Below, one piece after another: positions 3,683 through 60,690 of a DNA stretch of 64,000 nucleotides. Within the stretch, counting starts at the first letter, position 1. Each line of letters opens with the position of its first letter. The translations under genes were made by a program, and so were the position numbers. This DNA comes from a candidate division WOR-3 bacterium (GTDB taxonomy: Bacteria > Hydrothermota > Hydrothermia > Hydrothermales > JAJRUZ01), in assembly GCA_039804025.1 (NCBI GenBank), contig JBDRZP010000005.1, positions 28,273-92,272 on the forward strand, given 5' to 3'. The notes below the pieces were generated by a model. It was not told the origin of the DNA and ran no database searches. It saw only the letters and a list, made by a program, of their open reading frames with translations.

Positions 3683-3710
3683 AAGGATTTGCACCTTATC
3701 TATTATTATA
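3683..3710 (-). promoter_or_regulatory. Extended -10 box followed by a T-loop-like leader hairpin (AAGG-TGCAAAT-CCTT)
   Basis: Minus strand reads TG-T-TATAAT(3710-3705)-aatagat-AAGGTGCAAATCCTT(3697-3683)-19 AT-rich nt-ATG(3663); no SD. Confidence 0.65.
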
Positions 3711-3738
3711 ACATAAAAAAAATTCAAGGTTTTTAAAT

Positions 3739-3765
3739 ATATTGGATTTTTCTGGCTCAATAAGA
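3739..3765 (-). repeat. 27-bp motif shared with the duplicated 36.2 kb and 40.7 kb element
   Basis: Minus strand tcttattgagccagaaaaatccaatat; 26/27 identical to 40930-40956 and 25/27 to 36468-36494. Confidence 0.85.
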
Positions 3766-3845: not shown

Positions 3846-3921
3846 TCGGGGAGAGGGGATTTGAACCCCTGACCTCCTGGTCCCGAACCAGGCGCGCTAA
3901 ACCGGACTGCGCTACTCCCCG
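3846..3921 (-). tRNA. tRNA-Pro (anticodon CGG); 3' CCA not encoded
   Basis: Minus strand CGGGGAGTAGCGCAGTCCGGTTTAGCGCGCCTGG-TTCGGGA-CCAGGAGGTCAGGGGTTCAAATCCCCTCTCCCCGA gives a full cloverleaf; followed by TTG, not CCA. Confidence 0.97.
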
Positions 3922-8853: not shown

Positions 8854-8915
8854 GGATTTGAACCCTCCGCGGAAAGATTTTTTAAAATTATATGATTTTA
8901 TTTAATTTTTTTCAA
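8854..8915 (-). promoter_or_regulatory. Sigma70-type promoter of the por operon with a T-loop-like leader element
   Basis: TTGAAA(8915-8910)-17 nt-TATAAT(8892-8887); GGTTCAAATCC at 8864-8854 in the leader. Confidence 0.75.
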
Positions 8916-8924
8916 GTTTAAATG

Positions 8925-8997
8925 TTGATAAAGCATTATCTTTTTTATTATAATTTTATTCTTAATCATACACTATATTCTTAAGGGTTCCATTCCC
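8925..8997 (+). promoter_or_regulatory. Putative secD-operon promoter with a T-loop-like leader hairpin (GGG-TTCCATT-CCC)
   Basis: TTGATA(8925-8930)-18 nt-TATAAT(8949-8954); a second -10-like TATATT at 8974-8979; hairpin at 8985-8997, then 20 AT-only nt to GTG 9018; no SD. Confidence 0.6.
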
Positions 8998-9017
8998 AAA
9001 AAATAATTTTAAAAAAA

Positions 9018-10556
9018 GTGAAAACTATTAGGTTTAAATTTTTAATTATTTTGGGTGTTCTTCTTTTTTCCATTATTTCTCTTTTCCCTACAATACAATA
9101 TTATTCAATACCCAAATCCGAACTTGAAAAAAAGCCAAAAGAAGAGATAAGAAAACTTTTAAGAAGAACTCTTTCACTTGGTCTTGACCTTATAGGAGGT
9201 ATGTATCTTGTTTTGAAAGTTAACCCACCGGAAAAGGAAAAAGTTAAAGAAGCAAGGGATAGGGTCCTTGAAATAATAAGAAACAGAATAGACCAGTGGG
9301 GTGTTTTTGAACCAGTTATTCAGCCTATAGGTGAAGATAGGATTATGGTTCAGTTGCCTGGTGTTATGGACAGAGAAAGAGCAAGGGAAATAATCGGAAA
9401 AACAGCAGTTTTAACTTTTCATTTAGTTGAGGATATTGAAAGTGCTAAGAGAGTTCTTGATAATATTGATAAATCTCTTTTAGAAATAGAAGGGGGTAAT
9501 AAAAATTCACCTTTAAAACCACTTTTATTTTTATACAGGGGGGATATAGTTTTTGAAGAAATTTATCTTGATTCAATTAAAAAAATAATAAAAAGGGAGG
9601 AAGTTAAAAAATTAATTCCAAAGGATAAAATTTTTCTCTTTGGTAAATCTTTTGAAGTTGAAGGGAAAAAGTTAAGGTCAATTTTTTTGTTAAATAAAAA
9701 TCCAGATGTAAAGGGTGAGTATATAAAAGATGCAAGGCAATCAGTTTATCAGGGAACTGACCCGGCTCTTCAGAATACACCAGTTGTAAATATTTCCTTT
9801 GATAGAAGGGGCACAATAGATTTTGCAAGAGTTACGGGTGAGAATGTAGGAAGGAGGCTTGCGATAGTTCTTGATTCAATTGTTCAATCTGCTCCAAGAA
9901 TTGCCCAGAAAATACCAACAGGTAATGCCCAGATTACAGGAATTGAGTCAATGGATGAAGCAAGAGACCTGGCAGTTATTTTAAGGGCAGGTGCCTTACC
10001 AGCTCCTGTGGACATAGAAGAGGAAAGGTCAGTTGGTCCATTACTTGGAAAGGATTCAATAAGAAGGGGTATTCAGAGTGCTATTCTTGGTGGTCTACTT
10101 GTTATGATTTTTATGGCTATTTATTACCTATTTGCAGGAGCTGTTGCTGATTTTGCTCTTATATTGAATTTAATAATAATCCTCTCTCTTCTTTCCCTTT
10201 TTAAAGGGACCCTTACTTTACCGGGTATAGCAGGTCTCATTCTTACAATTGGTATGTCAGTTGATGCAAATGTTTTAATCTATGAAAGGATTAGGGAAGA
10301 ATTGAGACTTGGTAAATCCTTTAAAGCTGCAGTTGATGCAGGTTTTTCAAGGGCACTTATTACAATACTTGACTCAAACCTTACAACAATCTTTTCAGCA
10401 CTTGTGCTTATATGGTTTGGAACAGGTCCAATAAGAGGATTTGGTCTTGTTCTTGCCCTTGGGATTGCAACTTCTTTCTTTACAGCTGTTTTTGTTGTAA
10501 GAACAATTTTTGATTACTTTGTTATTGTTAAAAAAGTAAAAAGTTTACCTATATAA
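9018..10556 (+). CDS. secD: Protein translocase subunit SecD
   Basis: LGLDLIGG, IRNRIDQWGVFEPVIQ, LAIVLD, LRAGALPAP, GMSVDANVLIYERIREE. Confidence 0.97.
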   Translation: MKTIRFKFLIILGVLLFSIISLFPTIQYYSIPKSELEKKPKEEIRKLLRRTLSLGLDLIGGMYLVLKVNPPEKEKVKEARDRVLEIIRNRIDQWGVFEPVIQPIGEDRIMVQLPGVMDRERAREIIGKTAVLTFHLVEDIESAKRVLDNIDKSLLEIEGGNKNSPLKPLLFLYRGDIVFEEIYLDSIKKIIKREEVKKLIPKDKIFLFGKSFEVEGKKLRSIFLLNKNPDVKGEYIKDARQSVYQGTDPALQNTPVVNISFDRRGTIDFARVTGENVGRRLAIVLDSIVQSAPRIAQKIPTGNAQITGIESMDEARDLAVILRAGALPAPVDIEEERSVGPLLGKDSIRRGIQSAILGGLLVMIFMAIYYLFAGAVADFALILNLIIILSLLSLFKGTLTLPGIAGLILTIGMSVDANVLIYERIREELRLGKSFKAAVDAGFSRALITILDSNLTTIFSALVLIWFGTGPIRGFGLVLALGIATSFFTAVFVVRTIFDYFVIVKKVKSLPI

Positions 10557-36163: not shown

Positions 36164-36236
36164 AATGATTTTACTCTTAAAGCCAATTGATGAAAAATTT
36201 TAAAGAGATATTAGATAATGGGAAAAGGTAAAAATT

Positions 36237-36259
36237 CGCAGGCTAAAGCCTGCGTCTAC
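36237..36259 (-). repeat. GTAG-type REP hairpin (left)
   Basis: Minus strand GTAG-A-CGCAGGC-TTTA-GCCTGCG; perfect 7-bp stem. Confidence 0.85.
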
Positions 36260-36310
36260 CATTTTTTTTGAAAATTTTTAACATTTATTACCATATTCTA
36301 TAATTTTATG

Positions 36311-36333
36311 GTAGCCGCACCCTTTAGGGTGCG
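36311..36333 (+). repeat. GTAG-type REP hairpin (right)
   Basis: Plus strand GTAG-C-CGCACCC-TTTA-GGGTGCG; perfect 7-bp stem with compensatory changes relative to the left REP. Confidence 0.85.
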
Positions 36334-36516
36334 CAAAAATTCACTATCAAATTTTTTGAAAAATATACAGCGAGGCAACAGAGATGCTTTTGGAGTTAAA
36401 AAGTTTTGCGGTATATTTATGGAAAAAGAAAAATTAAGAACATTTTGTCTTAGGTATTTTTTTTTAATCTTATTGAGCCAGAAAAATTCAACATTGTTAT
36501 GGTATTCTATATTTAA

Positions 36517-36546
36517 TTGACTTATTATTTGTGGAGAGTATAAAAT
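36517..36546 (+). promoter_or_regulatory. Putative sigma70 promoter at the right junction of element copy 1
   Basis: TTGACT(36517-36522), then TATAAA after 16 nt or TAAAAT after 18 nt; SD AAGGAGG before ATG 36565. Confidence 0.5.
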
Positions 36547-36564: not shown

Positions 36565-37506
36565 ATGAATTTAATAGTATTTTTCTTTATAAATAAGTAT
36601 GCCTATGCAGTTTTACCTTATGAATCAAGGAATGTTGATTCCACTGTTTATAGAATTGTTATTGATTATATGGAGGAGGAACTTTCCTCTTATGGAAGTG
36701 TTCTTGAAAGGAATAAGGCTCAAGAGCTTCTTCTTAAAGTAAAAGAATGTGAAAGTGACATTTGTTTAAAGAAATACTCGGAAGAATACGATTTGGAAAA
36801 TATGGTATTTGTTTATCTTGATAGACTCGGTGAAAAATACCTCTTAAGGGTTAAAGTTTTTAATTCAAAGGAAGGTAAATTTGTTTACAATCAGAGAGAT
36901 ATTGCTGACAGGGAATCAGATTTAAATATTATTGTTGAGAGAATGGCAAAATCTGTATATGAAGGAAAAAGCATTGAAAAAGTCGTTACAACAGAAACAA
37001 TTACAGGTTATGAAGCTGAAAAAGAACCAAGAAAGAGACTTACAAGGAGATATTTAACTGCAAGGGTAGGTTCAATTTTCCCTTTAACAGGATATTATGA
37101 TGAAAATAGGGATGTTCCTTTGAATCTATCAAGATTTATTCTTGGATTTCATTATGAAGTAAAAAAGACATCAGTTTCCCTTGAATATGCTGTTTTTTCA
37201 AGAGGTTTTGGATTTGAATTTCCTGTAAGGTTTTATACTTCAACCGGAGATAATGCTCTATTTTATGAATTTGTGCCTGGTTACTATTTTATGCCTGATA
37301 TTTATGAAAACGGATACTGGTATTATGATGGTAGTGGTCGCAAAATTGCTGGAGGAAATGGACCTGCTCTTGGAATAGGTGGGGGTTTTATTCTTTTTCA
37401 CACTTATGATATTCAATTTATTATAGATGCAAAATACCTTTTTATTTTAAATAATGGTCCTGATTCAGGAGTTGAAATAACTTTCGGGCTTTTGGCCGGA
37501 AGGTAA
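36565..37506 (+). CDS. Exported protein: CsgG/TolB-N-like alpha/beta domain plus a C-terminal beta-barrel-like domain
   Basis: Short hydrophobic N-terminus; AVLPYESRNVD...ECESDIC...YLLRVKVFN; amphipathic aromatic strands in the C-terminal half. Confidence 0.65.
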   Translation: MNLIVFFFINKYAYAVLPYESRNVDSTVYRIVIDYMEEELSSYGSVLERNKAQELLLKVKECESDICLKKYSEEYDLENMVFVYLDRLGEKYLLRVKVFNSKEGKFVYNQRDIADRESDLNIIVERMAKSVYEGKSIEKVVTTETITGYEAEKEPRKRLTRRYLTARVGSIFPLTGYYDENRDVPLNLSRFILGFHYEVKKTSVSLEYAVFSRGFGFEFPVRFYTSTGDNALFYEFVPGYYFMPDIYENGYWYYDGSGRKIAGGNGPALGIGGGFILFHTYDIQFIIDAKYLFILNNGPDSGVEITFGLLAGR

Positions 37507-39525: not shown

Positions 39526-40602
39526 TTAGTATGGTCTTAAAAGCAAGTTAAAAAGAAAATAAAAGTAAATTGAATATTTAATCACATTTGATAAATTTTT
39601 CTTTTCTCTTTTAAGATAATTCCAGAAAAGTGATATAAAGGTAAAAAGGAATATAAGAGTAAAAATTATTAGATAGATTTCAAAAAAACTTAAAGAGCCT
39701 GAAAAAAGTGATTTTAAAGAAGTTTTATTGAAAGCAGAACCATAAACAACTAATAGATGTGAATAATATACAAGGAGTGATTCCATTCCGAGGATTTTTA
39801 TAATATTCAAGAATTTATTTTCTTTATTTTCTAATTGATATAAAATTAAGGATAAAAGAGTTAAATTAAAGATTTTAAAATAAATAGAGGCGACAAAATT
39901 TGTAAAAGGTTTTAATAAAAGGTATATTAAAAAATTTATTAATGCAAAAATTATAAAATAAAAATTTTTATTTTCCTTTTTTATCACTAAATATCCGAGA
40001 AAAACACCTGAAAAAAGGTATATGGAAAAGGGTGTTAAGGGAAAGTTTGAATTTTTAAAATACTTATAGAAGAAGAGGGGTAAATCAGGTTCAAATCCTT
40101 TATTAATAAAGAAACTTAAAATTGAAAAAATAAAAATTAAAAAAAAGTTTGTAATTAAAAAAAATTTCTCCTTTTTGGTAATAAAATAAAAAAATTGAAG
40201 TATTAATAGGCTTACTCCTATACATTGAAGGATATCAACATTAAAGAAATTATTCCAATCATTAAATTTTGAATATAATAATATTTTTCTTAAGGAAAAA
40301 TAGGGAAGATGAAGGGTATAACCAAGTAAAATAATAAAAAGTATTCTTCTTATTCTTGTAAATAATTTTTCAGAAAAAACAAGGTATTCTTTTCTATCTA
40401 TTGTTGATAAAGCAAAGCTTATTCCTGAAGCAAAAAGAAAAAGGGGAGCAGTGTATCCTCTAACATGCATCCAGGTCTGGTAAAAGAGGGATGATTTCTG
40501 GGAAATTGAAAGCAGGGCATCAAGGGAATGTCCGTTAATCATTTCAATAACAGCGATACCTCTTAAAAGGTCAAGGAATAAAAACCTTTTTTTATCTTTC
40601 AC
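39526..40602 (-). CDS. Membrane acyltransferase (DUF1624 / HGSNAT-like)
   Basis: RFLFLDLLRGIAVIEMINGH, APLFLFASGIS, DILQCIG, SLLVYYSHL; about 10 TMs. Confidence 0.8.
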   Translation of the reverse strand: MKDKKRFLFLDLLRGIAVIEMINGHSLDALLSISQKSSLFYQTWMHVRGYTAPLFLFASGISFALSTIDRKEYLVFSEKLFTRIRRILFIILLGYTLHLPYFSLRKILLYSKFNDWNNFFNVDILQCIGVSLLILQFFYFITKKEKFFLITNFFLIFIFSILSFFINKGFEPDLPLFFYKYFKNSNFPLTPFSIYLFSGVFLGYLVIKKENKNFYFIIFALINFLIYLLLKPFTNFVASIYFKIFNLTLLSLILYQLENKENKFLNIIKILGMESLLVYYSHLLVVYGSAFNKTSLKSLFSGSLSFFEIYLIIFTLIFLFTFISLFWNYLKREKKNLSNVIKYSIYFYFLFNLLLRPY

Positions 40603-40674
40603 CTTATTATTTTATGAAAATTTATGAATTAGAATAAAAGATAGTAAAGGTATAATTGTTTTTTTTGACATTTA

Positions 40675-40980
40675 ATGAAAAATTTTAAAGAGATATTAGA
40701 TAATGGGAAAAGGTAAAAATTACCATTTTTTTGAAAATTTTTAACATTTATTCTCATATTCTATAATTTTATGGTAGCCTTACCCTTTAGGGTTCGCAAA
40801 AATTCATTATCAAATTTTTTGAAAAATATACAGCGAAGCAACAGAGATGCTTTTGGAGTTAAAAAGGTTTGCGGTATATTTATGGAAAAAGAAAAATTAA
40901 GAACATTTTGTCTTAGGCATTCCTTTTAATCTTATTGAGCCAGAAAAATTCAATATTGTTATGGTATTCTACATTTAATT
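40675..40980 (+). repeat. Duplicated intergenic element, copy 2 (306 bp); left REP deleted, right REP decayed
   Basis: aaaaat|taccatttt lacks tcgcaggctaaagcctgcgtc; right REP reads gtagccttaccctttagggttcgc; ACATTTAAT direct repeat at 40668-40676 and 40971-40979. Confidence 0.95.
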
Positions 40981-41001: not shown

Positions 41002-41028
41002 TATAATTAGTTTTTGGGTCCAATTCCT
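41002..41028 (+). promoter_or_regulatory. -10 box followed by a T-loop-like leader hairpin (GGG-TCCAATT-CCT)
   Basis: TATAAT 41002-41007, hairpin 41016-41028, SD AAGGAGG 41048-41054, ATG 41059. Confidence 0.55.
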
Positions 41029-59484: not shown

Positions 59485-60651
59485 ATGTTTGGTGAACTTG
59501 TTAGTTTATTGGAAACAGAGGAACAAAAGATTTTGAGGGAAACAGTTAGAAAGTTTGTTAAGGAAAAAATTGCTCCCCTTGCCTCAGAGATTGATGAGAA
59601 AGATGAGTTTCCTTCTCAAATTTTTAAAGAGATGGCAGAACTTGGTTTTACCGGAATTCTTATACCAGAAGAATACGGAGGTTTTGGAGAGGATATTTTA
59701 TCAGCTTGTATTGTGCTTGAGGAAATTTCAAGAGAAAGTCCATCAATAGCACTTTCACTTCTTGCCCATTCTGTGTTATGTGCTCATCCTATAACAAGGT
59801 TTGGGACAAAAGAACAGAAGGAAAAATACTTACCAAAACTTGCAAAGGGTGAGTTAATAGGTGCTCTTGCAATTACAGAACCTGATGCAGGATCTGACAC
59901 CTATTCTATCAAGACTACAGCAAAGGAGGAAAAAGAAGGGTTTATTATAAATGGTAGTAAGATCTTTATAACAAATGGTTCAATTGCTGATATCATAATA
60001 GTTTATGCAAAAACTTCCCCTGAAAAAGAAAAATTAGGAATATCAAGTTTCATTTTTGAAACAAATTGTAAAGGTTTTTCAGTGAGTAAAAAATTTGAGA
60101 AAATGGGAATGAGGGGTTCTCCAACTGCTTCTTTATTCTTTGATAATGCTTTCTGTCCTAAGGAAAATCTTCTTGGAGAGAAAGATAAAGGCTTTAATAT
60201 ACTTGTAAAATGCTTTGAGGTGGAAAGAATTACAATTTCAGCAATTTCTCTTGGTATAGCTCTTTCATCCCTTGAATGGCAGATTAAATATTCAAAGGAA
60301 AGGAAGCAATTTTCTAAACCAATCTATGAATTTCAGATGGTTTCCGAAAAGATCGCGGAAAATGCGGCTCTCCTTGAGGTTTTAAGAACTTATATTTATT
60401 TTCTTGCTAAAAATTATGATATTAGGAAGGATAATAGAGTTGAAAGTGCTACTTCAAAACTTCTTGCGGGGAAACTGGGTGTTAAGGCTTCTCTTGATGC
60501 AATTCAGATTCTTGGAGGTTATGGTTATACAAAGGAGTATCCTGTGGAAAGATTTCTAAGAGACGCAAAGCTTATGGAGATAGGTGCGGGAACTTCTGAA
60601 ATTATGAAATTTATAATTTCCAATGTGTTAATTGAGAAATATCCTGTTTGA
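59485..60651 (+). CDS. Acyl-CoA dehydrogenase (isovaleryl/butyryl-CoA type)
   Basis: PEEYGG, ALAITEPDAGSD, NGSKIFITNG, KMGMRGSPT, RKQFSKPIYEFQ, LGGYGY..EYPVERFLRDAK..EIGAGTSEI. Confidence 0.95.
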   Translation: MFGELVSLLETEEQKILRETVRKFVKEKIAPLASEIDEKDEFPSQIFKEMAELGFTGILIPEEYGGFGEDILSACIVLEEISRESPSIALSLLAHSVLCAHPITRFGTKEQKEKYLPKLAKGELIGALAITEPDAGSDTYSIKTTAKEEKEGFIINGSKIFITNGSIADIIIVYAKTSPEKEKLGISSFIFETNCKGFSVSKKFEKMGMRGSPTASLFFDNAFCPKENLLGEKDKGFNILVKCFEVERITISAISLGIALSSLEWQIKYSKERKQFSKPIYEFQMVSEKIAENAALLEVLRTYIYFLAKNYDIRKDNRVESATSKLLAGKLGVKASLDAIQILGGYGYTKEYPVERFLRDAKLMEIGAGTSEIMKFIISNVLIEKYPV

Positions 60652-60664
60652 AGTTATAATTTAT

Positions 60665-60690
60665 TATAATTTTTATAAGGTTCAAATCCT
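60665..60690 (+). promoter_or_regulatory. -10 box followed by a T-loop-like leader hairpin (AGG-TTCAAAT-CCT)
   Basis: TATAAT 60665-60670, 6 nt, AAGGTTCAAATCCT 60677-60690 (stem extendable with one bulge), 19 AT-rich nt, ATG 60710; no SD. Confidence 0.65.

Follow-up and report, generated by a model that had tools for sequence, protein, structure and literature searches.

Messenger RNAs that imitate part of a tRNA are known from several systems, among them the t-elements of plant mitochondria, tRNA punctuation in mitochondrial transcripts, the operator of the E. coli thrS gene and viral TLS elements. In all of these, part-tRNA mimicry borrows the machinery that recognises tRNA, as it would in the bacterial motif described here, and some of them, like some copies of our motif, lie between cistrons; they are, however, built from whole arms or L-shapes with real helices, whereas our motif consists of a 7-nt loop and two closing pairs only. 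A parallel at the level of DNA is the B box of RNA polymerase III (GGTTCGANTCC), which also occurs in yeast intergenic regions as B-box-only ‘ETC’ sites for TFIIIC. Its consensus is near-identical to that of our motif, both being T-arm-derived, and ETC sites are likewise stand-alone intergenic copies; as a eukaryotic DNA-level system read by TFIIIC, it nevertheless provides a mere analogy for a DNA-level explanation of the motif, and to our knowledge bacteria have neither TFIIIC nor Pol III. Signals for initiation independent of the Shine–Dalgarno sequence (SD) are known from the FCB group, where they are compositional: A-rich ‘Kozak-like’ upstream positions in Bacteroidota, within ~15 nt of the start. 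The lineage studied here resembles that group in having few SDs and A/U-rich spacers after the motif; unlike those signals, the motif is a discrete, G/C-clamped 11-mer at −20 to −35.

Eukaryotic mRNAs contain T-loop-like GUUCNANNC sites that are modified by TRUB1/Pus4 (PMC13492117, PMC5340967). The minimum stem reported for TRUB1 is 2 bp, and the E. coli enzyme TruB, although it modifies short stem-loops, has only weak affinity for them (PMC13492117). The sites of TRUB1/Pus4 pseudouridylation and of TRMT6/61A m1A formation share with our motif the G-U-U-C-N-A-N-N-C sequence and the G–C-closed 7-nt loop; they are, however, scattered, mostly in coding or 3′ regions, with no class-wide position or conservation relative to the start codon. 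The motif described here is by contrast bacterial, clade-wide, placed 17–28 nt before the ribosome-binding region and conserved between orthologues, with two copies that lack U55. Full-text literature searches and Rfam returned no bacterial leader element of this kind. What is known is tRNA mimicry in mRNA as such; the present element has a real chance of being more distinctive and, if it acts as RNA, would be the first conserved, positioned T-loop mimic to serve as a gene-expression signal in bacteria, linking tRNA-modification or tRNA-binding machinery to the control of mRNA.

A T-loop-like motif recurs in 5′ leaders

We analysed a 64-kb stretch of DNA (the window; ~30% G+C) whose protein names and Pfam domains identify it as Candidatus Hydrothermales (WOR-3), a lineage that the literature places in hot springs and vents. 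Two of its proteins, LVIVD and M36, bear type-9 secretion sorting domains. A first-pass annotation of the sequence had drawn attention to an 11-mer resembling a tRNA T-arm in the leaders of five genes, and all five copies are indeed present where it had placed them, in the sense orientation relative to the downstream gene. The copies in the window are:

3685–3695, minus strand: leader of the DUF7948/SBBP gene, GGTGCAAATCC; ATG (3663) at 21 nt; no SD.
8854–8864, minus strand: leader of porC, GGTTCAAATCC; SD GGAGGG at 20 nt, ATG (8819) at 34 nt.
8985–8997, plus strand: leader of secD, GGGTTCCATTCCC, with the 11-mer at 8986–8996; a 20-nt A/U-rich spacer, then the GTG start at 9018; no SD.
41017–41027, plus strand: leader of the LVIVD/T9SS-CTD gene, GGTCCAATTCC; SD GGAGG at 21 nt, ATG (41050) at 31 nt.
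60679–60689, plus strand: leader of the M36 peptidase gene, GGTTCAAATCC; ATG (60710) at 20 nt; no SD.
40088–40098, plus strand: sixth non-tRNA copy, an exact 11-mer, antisense within the acyltransferase ORF 39526–40602.
3857–3867, minus strand: genuine T-arm of tRNA-Pro(CGG), GGTTCAAATCC, outside any leader element and given for comparison only.

These copies account for all seven exact matches to GGTNCNANTCC in the window, that is, the five leader copies, the tRNA-Pro T-arm and the plus-strand copy at 40088–40098, against 0.67 expected from dinucleotide shuffles. Intergenic DNA makes up ~4% of the window by our curated gene list (2371 nt): both strands of this fraction hold five matches where 0.0055 are expected, and none of 3000 shuffles reached five. 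The hand estimate of ~0.01 expected intergenic matches in the first-pass annotation was therefore about right. Its distances from the closing CC to the start codon are correct: secD and SBBP have 21 nt each, the peptidase 20 nt, porC 34 nt and LVIVD 31 nt. Because the GGTNCNANTCC pattern was set post hoc, these figures need independent support, which is supplied by the conservation of the motif in orthologous leaders of diverged relatives (below).

The copies differ in their surroundings. Those of SBBP, LVIVD and the peptidase lie 8–9 nt past a −10 box: the SBBP copy has a TGnTATAAT box 9 nt upstream, the LVIVD copy a TATAAT 9 nt upstream, and the peptidase copy, situated in a 58-nt gap behind an acyl-CoA dehydrogenase gene, follows its TATAAT by 8 nt. 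The four leaders first thought to carry such a box 6–9 nt upstream are in this way reduced to three, as the TATATT near the secD copy is not conserved. At the position equivalent to T55, the SBBP copy has G (GGTGC) and the LVIVD copy C (GGTCC). The region upstream of LVIVD is part of a 95% repeat, and a block of it is common to the SBBP upstream region, so these two copies are possibly not independent. Downstream of the 40088–40098 copy we found neither an ORF nor an obvious promoter, and this copy may be a chance match or a relic.

Orthologous sites keep the motif within a genus-level clade

Contigs of relatives were gathered through homologues of SecD, the M36 peptidase and TrmD, together with a motif-independent stretch of DNA from the porC N-terminus, used as an anchor in a metagenome scan that returned loci L107, L111 and L113. 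A metagenome scan with the low-complexity, K/E-rich peptides of the neighbouring 1112-aa TPR protein gave no matches. A contig scan with universal peptides from the SecD alignment gave, among the matches listed, two distant WOR-3 loci (47–49% identity).

In the motif-bearing relatives whose secD locus was retrieved, SecD is about 80–93% identical to that of the window, and TrmD is 73–82% identical between operon loci; the motif-carrying group comprises six or more species-level lineages and amounts to a clade at genus level. Within it, the motif is kept at five orthologous sites whose flanks have diverged: secD, porC, porB/CoA-transferase, rpsP/khpA and thiamine-BP/aminotransferase. The secD copy persists as GGGTTC[CT]A[TGA]TCCC in six diverged lineages (L084, L085, L086, L107/L111, L113), 21–28 nt from a GTG start that has no SD. 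The divergently oriented porC copy persists as GGTTC[AT]A[ATC]TCC in five lineages (L084, L085, L086 and L107/L111 among them), 19–23 nt from GGAGGG; the porC leader of L113 is shorter and lacks the motif. The remaining three sites lie between cistrons:

porB/CoA-transferase spacer: GGTTCGATTCC (L085) and GGTTCAAAGCC (L086), 23 and 20 nt from the ATG.
rpsP/khpA spacer: GGGTTCAA[GTC]TCCC in four lineages, including the window’s own genome (L124), 19–20 nt from GGAGG.
Thiamine-BP/aminotransferase spacer: GGTTCAA[AT][CT]CC in four lineages, 18–24 nt from the ATG.

In these three groups the motif begins 0–21 nt after the upstream stop codon. The porB/CoA-transferase spacer is only 30–33 nt long, and the motif begins at the porB stop codon itself; in the thiamine-BP/aminotransferase spacer it starts 0–4 nt past the stop codon, and khpA belongs to an rpsP–trmD operon.

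At ~60% protein identity, relatives have no motif at the loci compared. Two of them (L087 and L088) instead start secD with GGAGG plus TTG, and in relatives at this distance rpsP and khpA lie 1 nt apart; with an ordinary SD at secD and abutting rpsP and khpA, these relatives offer a natural before-and-after comparison. The orthologue of the peptidase gene in L121 (71% identity) has other genes around it and no copy of the motif, whose absence there and from the L113 porC leader indicates that the motif is dispensable at some sites. The element arose within a narrow clade. The first-pass annotation had supposed it to be lineage-specific and had proposed a scan of related genomes; in the contigs of relatives compared here it is both lineage-specific and strand-specific, kept in close relatives and absent at ~60% identity.

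The same annotation had also seen a protein-export theme in the genes concerned. Beyond the export genes, however, the carriers include porC and the genes for the CoA-transferase, KhpA and the aminotransferase, which are functionally unrelated; these carriers rule out an export regulon, and the theme falls with it.

The motif retains the T-loop without the T-arm

Over 25 distinct instances, the consensus of the motif is (R)GG-T-T-C-N-A-N-Y-CC(Y), 11–13 nt in length. G1, G2, T3, C5, A7, C10 and C11 are invariant (25/25), position 4 is T in 23 and position 9 a pyrimidine in 24, positions 6 and 8 are free, and nothing is conserved in the flanks except a preference for G/A at −1. In tRNA numbering, the motif reads G52 G53 U54 U55 C56 N57 A58 N59 Y60 C61 C62. 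A T-loop owes its own fold to the G53–C61 closure, the U54–A58 reverse-Hoogsteen pair and Y60 (PMC7912444), and all of these fold-defining bases are retained, in keeping with the original claim that the T-loop consensus has been copied: at the sequence level, the 7-nt loop with G53–C61, U54, C56 and A58 is present in 25/25 instances and Y60 in 24/25. Purine 57, which in tRNA stacks within the contact with the D-loop (PMC7912444), is not retained, position 6 being A/G in 15/25 instances and C/T in 10/25. The pattern that defines TruB/Pus4/TRUB1 substrates (GUUCNANNC with U55 and at least two closing pairs) fits 23/25; the SBBP and LVIVD copies, without U55, do not fit.

The likeness does not extend into the stem. 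Only two G–C pairs are invariant; a third pair is formed in 16/25 instances and the outer two in 8–10/25, and across the three outer positions 67.2% are paired compared with 66.8% in shuffles. Pair counting over the 25 instances revealed no 5-bp T-arm stem and no covariation; the T-arm hairpin originally described thus shrinks to the two invariant G–C pairs, with nothing conserved beyond them, and the one or two extra pairs that it was said to have in most copies, standing at shuffle level, are not a conserved feature. In porC orthologues the third pair is absent and the hairpin is not the predicted fold, and in several leaders the predicted fold likewise differs from the motif hairpin. At 37 °C the predicted hairpin energies lie between −1 and −5 kcal/mol, at 65 °C they are ~0, and modelling makes a self-standing hairpin unlikely in this probable thermophile.

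No other tRNA-like structure accompanies the motif. ARAGORN and Rfam (RF00005, CL00001) found only tRNA-Pro(CGG) at 3846–3921, which is the sole tRNA gene of the window, and permissive Rfam scans of two leader regions gave noise only. The Rfam search that had been suggested at the outset accordingly matched no family at gathering or permissive thresholds; the element is not a tRNA.

Position follows the ribosome-binding region rather than the promoter

That the motif keeps a fairly constant spacing ahead of translation starts, as the first-pass annotation had it, is borne out across the clade: in 228 kb of clade DNA, 24 of 33 non-tRNA matches to GGTNCNANNCC have a start codon 17–29 nt or an SD 17–25 nt further downstream, compared with none of 10 matches in 295 kb of AT-rich control DNA from outside the clade. 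In SD-less genes the motif itself lies 17–28 nt upstream of the start codon, mostly at 18–24 nt with a maximum of 28; in genes that have an SD it lies 17–28 nt upstream of that SD, at 19–23 nt in 11/11 cases. Because the geometry relative to the start codon differs between these two classes, rigid docking on the ribosome is argued against. An SD precedes only ~13 of 56 genes in the window, and many of the window’s genes look leaderless, with a −10-like box 5–8 nt before the ATG. If it acts as RNA, the motif would bear on how bacteria that largely ignore the SD mark and tune their start sites.

The motif is coupled less tightly to the promoter than to the ribosome-binding region (SD or start codon). 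At secD and porC, predicted sigma-70-type promoters stand upstream of the motif:

8925–8954, plus strand: secD promoter, TTGATA-18-TATAAT; 11/12 consensus matches, kept in the alignment of relatives.
8887–8915, minus strand: porC promoter, TTGAAA-17-TATAAT; 11/12 consensus matches, with the motif 22 nt past the −10 box.

The secD promoter ends 30 nt upstream of the GGG, which puts the motif at ~+24 of the predicted 5′ UTR, and the position of these conserved consensus promoters upstream of the motif predicts that it is transcribed at both genes. Among orthologues, indels place the motif anywhere from 15 to 30 nt past the −10 box at secD and from 11 to 22 nt past it at porC, an overall range of 11–30 nt at conserved boxes. 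The copies in the rpsP/khpA and thiamine-BP/aminotransferase spacers have no sense-strand sigma-70-like promoter in the preceding 270–330 nt, by a scan for the sigma-70 consensus that weak internal promoters of an AT-rich genome could escape.

The motif thus has no fixed position relative to the −10/−35 hexamers, whereas a sigma-70 element or an operator at +1 would be expected to keep one relative to these or to the transcription start site (TSS), and downstream of it neither a −10 partner at fixed spacing, as an alternative sigma factor would use, nor any other conserved position was found. We rejected readings of the motif as a promoter element of sigma-70, ECF or sigma-54 geometry, for which it has no consistent spacing and no conserved −10 partner. 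The initial proposal of a module of the mRNA 5′ end is contradicted by the variable −10 distance and by the three orthologous groups that lie between cistrons of operons; the operator across +1 that was offered as an alternative is likewise at odds with the copies between cistrons. We also considered that the 3′ UCC(Y) of the motif sequesters the SD, to which it is complementary over 3–6 nt (GGAGG/GGAUUU) in some SD genes such as porC, and rejected this as a general mechanism because such complementarity is trivial for any YCC and the SD-less genes, the larger group, offer no partner.

A proposed RNA element read by a T-arm-recognising factor, and alternatives to it

We favour, with about even confidence, the explanation that the motif is an RNA element adjoining the ribosome-binding site that mimics a T-loop and is read by a factor that recognises T-arms. 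Action at the level of RNA is suggested by the sense orientation, by the placement of copies inside operons and by promoters that lie upstream of the motif; the coupling to the ribosome-binding region rather than to the promoter, and the reproduction of the T-loop determinants, point the same way. A specific reader would be needed because the loop bases are invariant although the stem lacks the strength to form unaided; in a probable thermophile, capture of the two-pair stem by a trans-acting, T-arm-recognising factor would be most likely. Candidate readers are TruB, an m5U54 methyltransferase, TrmI (m1A58), some other protein that binds T-arms, or the ribosome. With G or C in place of U55, TruB is excluded at SBBP and LVIVD, so that, should all copies share one reader, TruB fits less well than an enzyme or protein that depends on U54, C56 and A58. 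Once bound or modified, the element, which borders the ribosome landing site on its 5′ side, could set initiation, the stability of the downstream cistron or both; its effect on initiation might be positive or negative, and it might instead make the mRNA more stable or guide its processing. Of the interpretation with which this work began, a lineage-specific T-loop-like cis-element at translation starts has stood, and the stem, the link to the 5′ end and the export theme have not.

A bolder version of this explanation, which we offer tentatively and think rather less probable than its negation, is that the T-loop has become a general signal in the mRNAs of thermophilic WOR-3 bacteria, throughout a clade of genus level. 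The mimic, closed by two pairs, would sit one ribosome footprint upstream of starts, in leaders and between cistrons, where T-arm machinery (TruB, an m5U54/m1A58 methyltransferase, or a ribosomal contact for the tRNA elbow such as the L1 stalk) would read it and set translation initiation or the fate of the mRNA. If true, this would constitute positioned, conserved control by RNA modification or tRNA mimicry in bacteria, possibly compensating for weak use of the Shine–Dalgarno sequence.

The most serious alternative, in our judgement unlikely but with a real claim to attention, is that the motif acts as DNA, either as an asymmetric transcription-factor site that blocks or represses within or just past promoters, or as the upstream element of a non-canonical promoter whose TSS lies ~20 nt downstream, such that SD-less mRNAs would be leaderless and others would start at the SD. 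If the TSS always lay equally far from the motif, the shared 17–28 nt to the SD or start codon would follow, and many genes of the window look leaderless; all promoter-proximal copies lie downstream of a −10 box, the typical place of an operator, and a helix in the RNA is unsupported. Many copies also have a TAnnnT hexamer between motif and start (TATAAT in the porC leader of L085, for example); such hexamers are, however, frequent by chance at 77% A+T, and the gap between motif and −10-like hexamer, at 3–11 nt where a hexamer exists at all, is too variable for a sigma factor. The khpA spacers, moreover, contain no conserved −10 and nothing promoter-like, whereas secD and porC already have conserved consensus promoters upstream of the motif; the two divergent copies at these genes lie from 93 to 160 nt apart among relatives, so that their geometry on the DNA is not fixed. 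Finally, it would have to be coincidence that an asymmetric site in DNA matches every T-loop determinant.

A special case of the RNA-level explanation, which we consider improbable, is that the motif is a processing or ‘punctuation’ signal at which RNase P, RNase Z, a similar tRNA-processing nuclease or some other endonuclease cuts leaders and polycistronic mRNAs, leaving a 5′ end ~10–20 nt before the ribosome-binding site. The copies directly after upstream stop codons in three operons and the constant spacing to the downstream ribosome-binding site would suit such a signal, for which the t-elements of plant mitochondria and the mitochondrial tRNA punctuation model are precedents. RNase P and RNase Z, however, need a coaxial acceptor/T helix of ~12 bp, compared with a stem here of at most 2–3 bp, and ARAGORN and Rfam detect nothing tRNA-like.

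We think it more improbable still that the motif is a generic small hairpin without a specific reader, serving as a 5′-terminal stabiliser against 5′-end-dependent decay or as an insulator that keeps an A/U-rich landing pad unpaired. In three genes of the window the GG lies 8–9 nt past TATAAT, which would put it at the extreme 5′ end, and the downstream spacers are A/U-rich and unstructured; but such a hairpin has no need of an invariant T, C and A in its loop, a stem of 2–3 bp is worth ~0 kcal/mol at 65 °C, and the position relative to the promoter is variable, with some copies intercistronic.

That the copies are non-functional, as chance matches, relics of tRNA genes or duplicated integrase att sites, is close to refuted: although the 11-mer is identical to the T-arm of the local tRNA-Pro, one copy is antisense within an ORF and a stretch of repeated DNA is common to the regions upstream of SBBP and LVIVD, the enrichment is ~1000-fold over expectation, orientation and distance to starts are strict, five orthologous sites are conserved amid diverging flanks, and likeness to tRNA ends with the 11-mer, all flanks being unrelated to the tRNA-Pro flank cctctccccga, on which grounds we rejected a tRNA relic or integrase att site. 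For annotation, 11-base tRNA-like matches in leaders of this lineage should accordingly be taken neither for tRNA fragments nor for att sites.

Start-site signals in secD and the rpsP-khpA spacer

The start region of secD differs between the motif-bearing clade and its relatives at ~60% identity. In the latter, secD has a TTG start behind a GGAGG Shine-Dalgarno sequence (SD; L087 2480-2620, L088 9900-10030); in the clade it has a GTG start, no SD, and the T-loop motif, an 11-nt look-alike of the tRNA T-arm, 21-28 nt upstream (window 8985-9020). On sequence comparison, it looks as if one start-site signal has been replaced by another. The rpsP-khpA gap is 1 nt in the outgroup (L129 9266-9268), and the clade has a spacer of 56-61 nt that holds the motif together with a strong SD (L124, from the window's own genome, 6823-6878). 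The porC leader is polymorphic for presence or absence of the motif (L113 2430-2520 versus L111 6540-6640): L113 has the same promoter as L107 and L111, but lacks the ~45-nt segment bearing the motif.

Across the window, an SD is present in only ~13 of 56 genes; in many, a TATAAT-like box precedes the ATG by 5-8 nt, suggesting that leaderless mRNAs are widespread in this lineage. Starts at 59485 (+), 1432 (-), 59429 (-) and 29252 (-) exemplify these features.

A block repeated upstream of two genes, with a sub-block upstream of a third

A block of ~330 bp recurs before the gene at 36565 and the LVIVD gene with 95% identity, and part of it lies before the SBBP gene:

36184-36518, copy 1, upstream of the gene at 36565
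40669-40980, copy 2, upstream of the LVIVD gene
3734-3765, inverted, sub-block TCTTATTGAGCCAGAAAAATYCAATAT of 27-32 nt, upstream of the SBBP gene

Within the block are a promoter-like element of its own, TTGAAA...TATAAT, and a GC hairpin; the hairpin reads GCGCACCCTTTAGGGTGCGC in copy 1 and is degraded in copy 2. The T-loop motif is absent from copy 1, which diverges before the promoter-proximal part.

Coding matches and unusual copies

A match to the relaxed pattern, GGTTCAAC[AC]CC, recurs within the M20 peptidase gene because the conserved peptide HGSTPWEG is encoded there, and exemplifies the coding false positives that this pattern can give:

L124 2612-2622
L132 5563-5573
L128 5514-5524

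Further copies of the motif:

window 40088-40098 (+), exact copy of GGTTCAAATCC, antisense within the acyltransferase ORF 39526-40602
L124 1551-1603, identical in L126 416-468, copy GGTTCTATCCC, overlapping a 6-bp hairpin (TATCCC/GGGATA)
L113 7814-7824 (-), orphan copy GGTTCAAGTCC, in a divergent intergenic region

The first has no ORF downstream; a hand estimate from base composition gives ~0.02 exact copies of GGTTCAAATCC expected per window. In both L124 and L126, the second is followed 22 nt on by GGAG and then a mini-ORF of two codons (ATG AAT TAA); ~40 nt further downstream lies a gene whose small protein product has an N-terminus resembling a signal peptide. After the L113 copy, a 23-codon ORF (MSFVWMLMVNISFIGIEIIIKSY) begins after 19 nt; it could encode a leader peptide or another small protein, or might not be coding at all.
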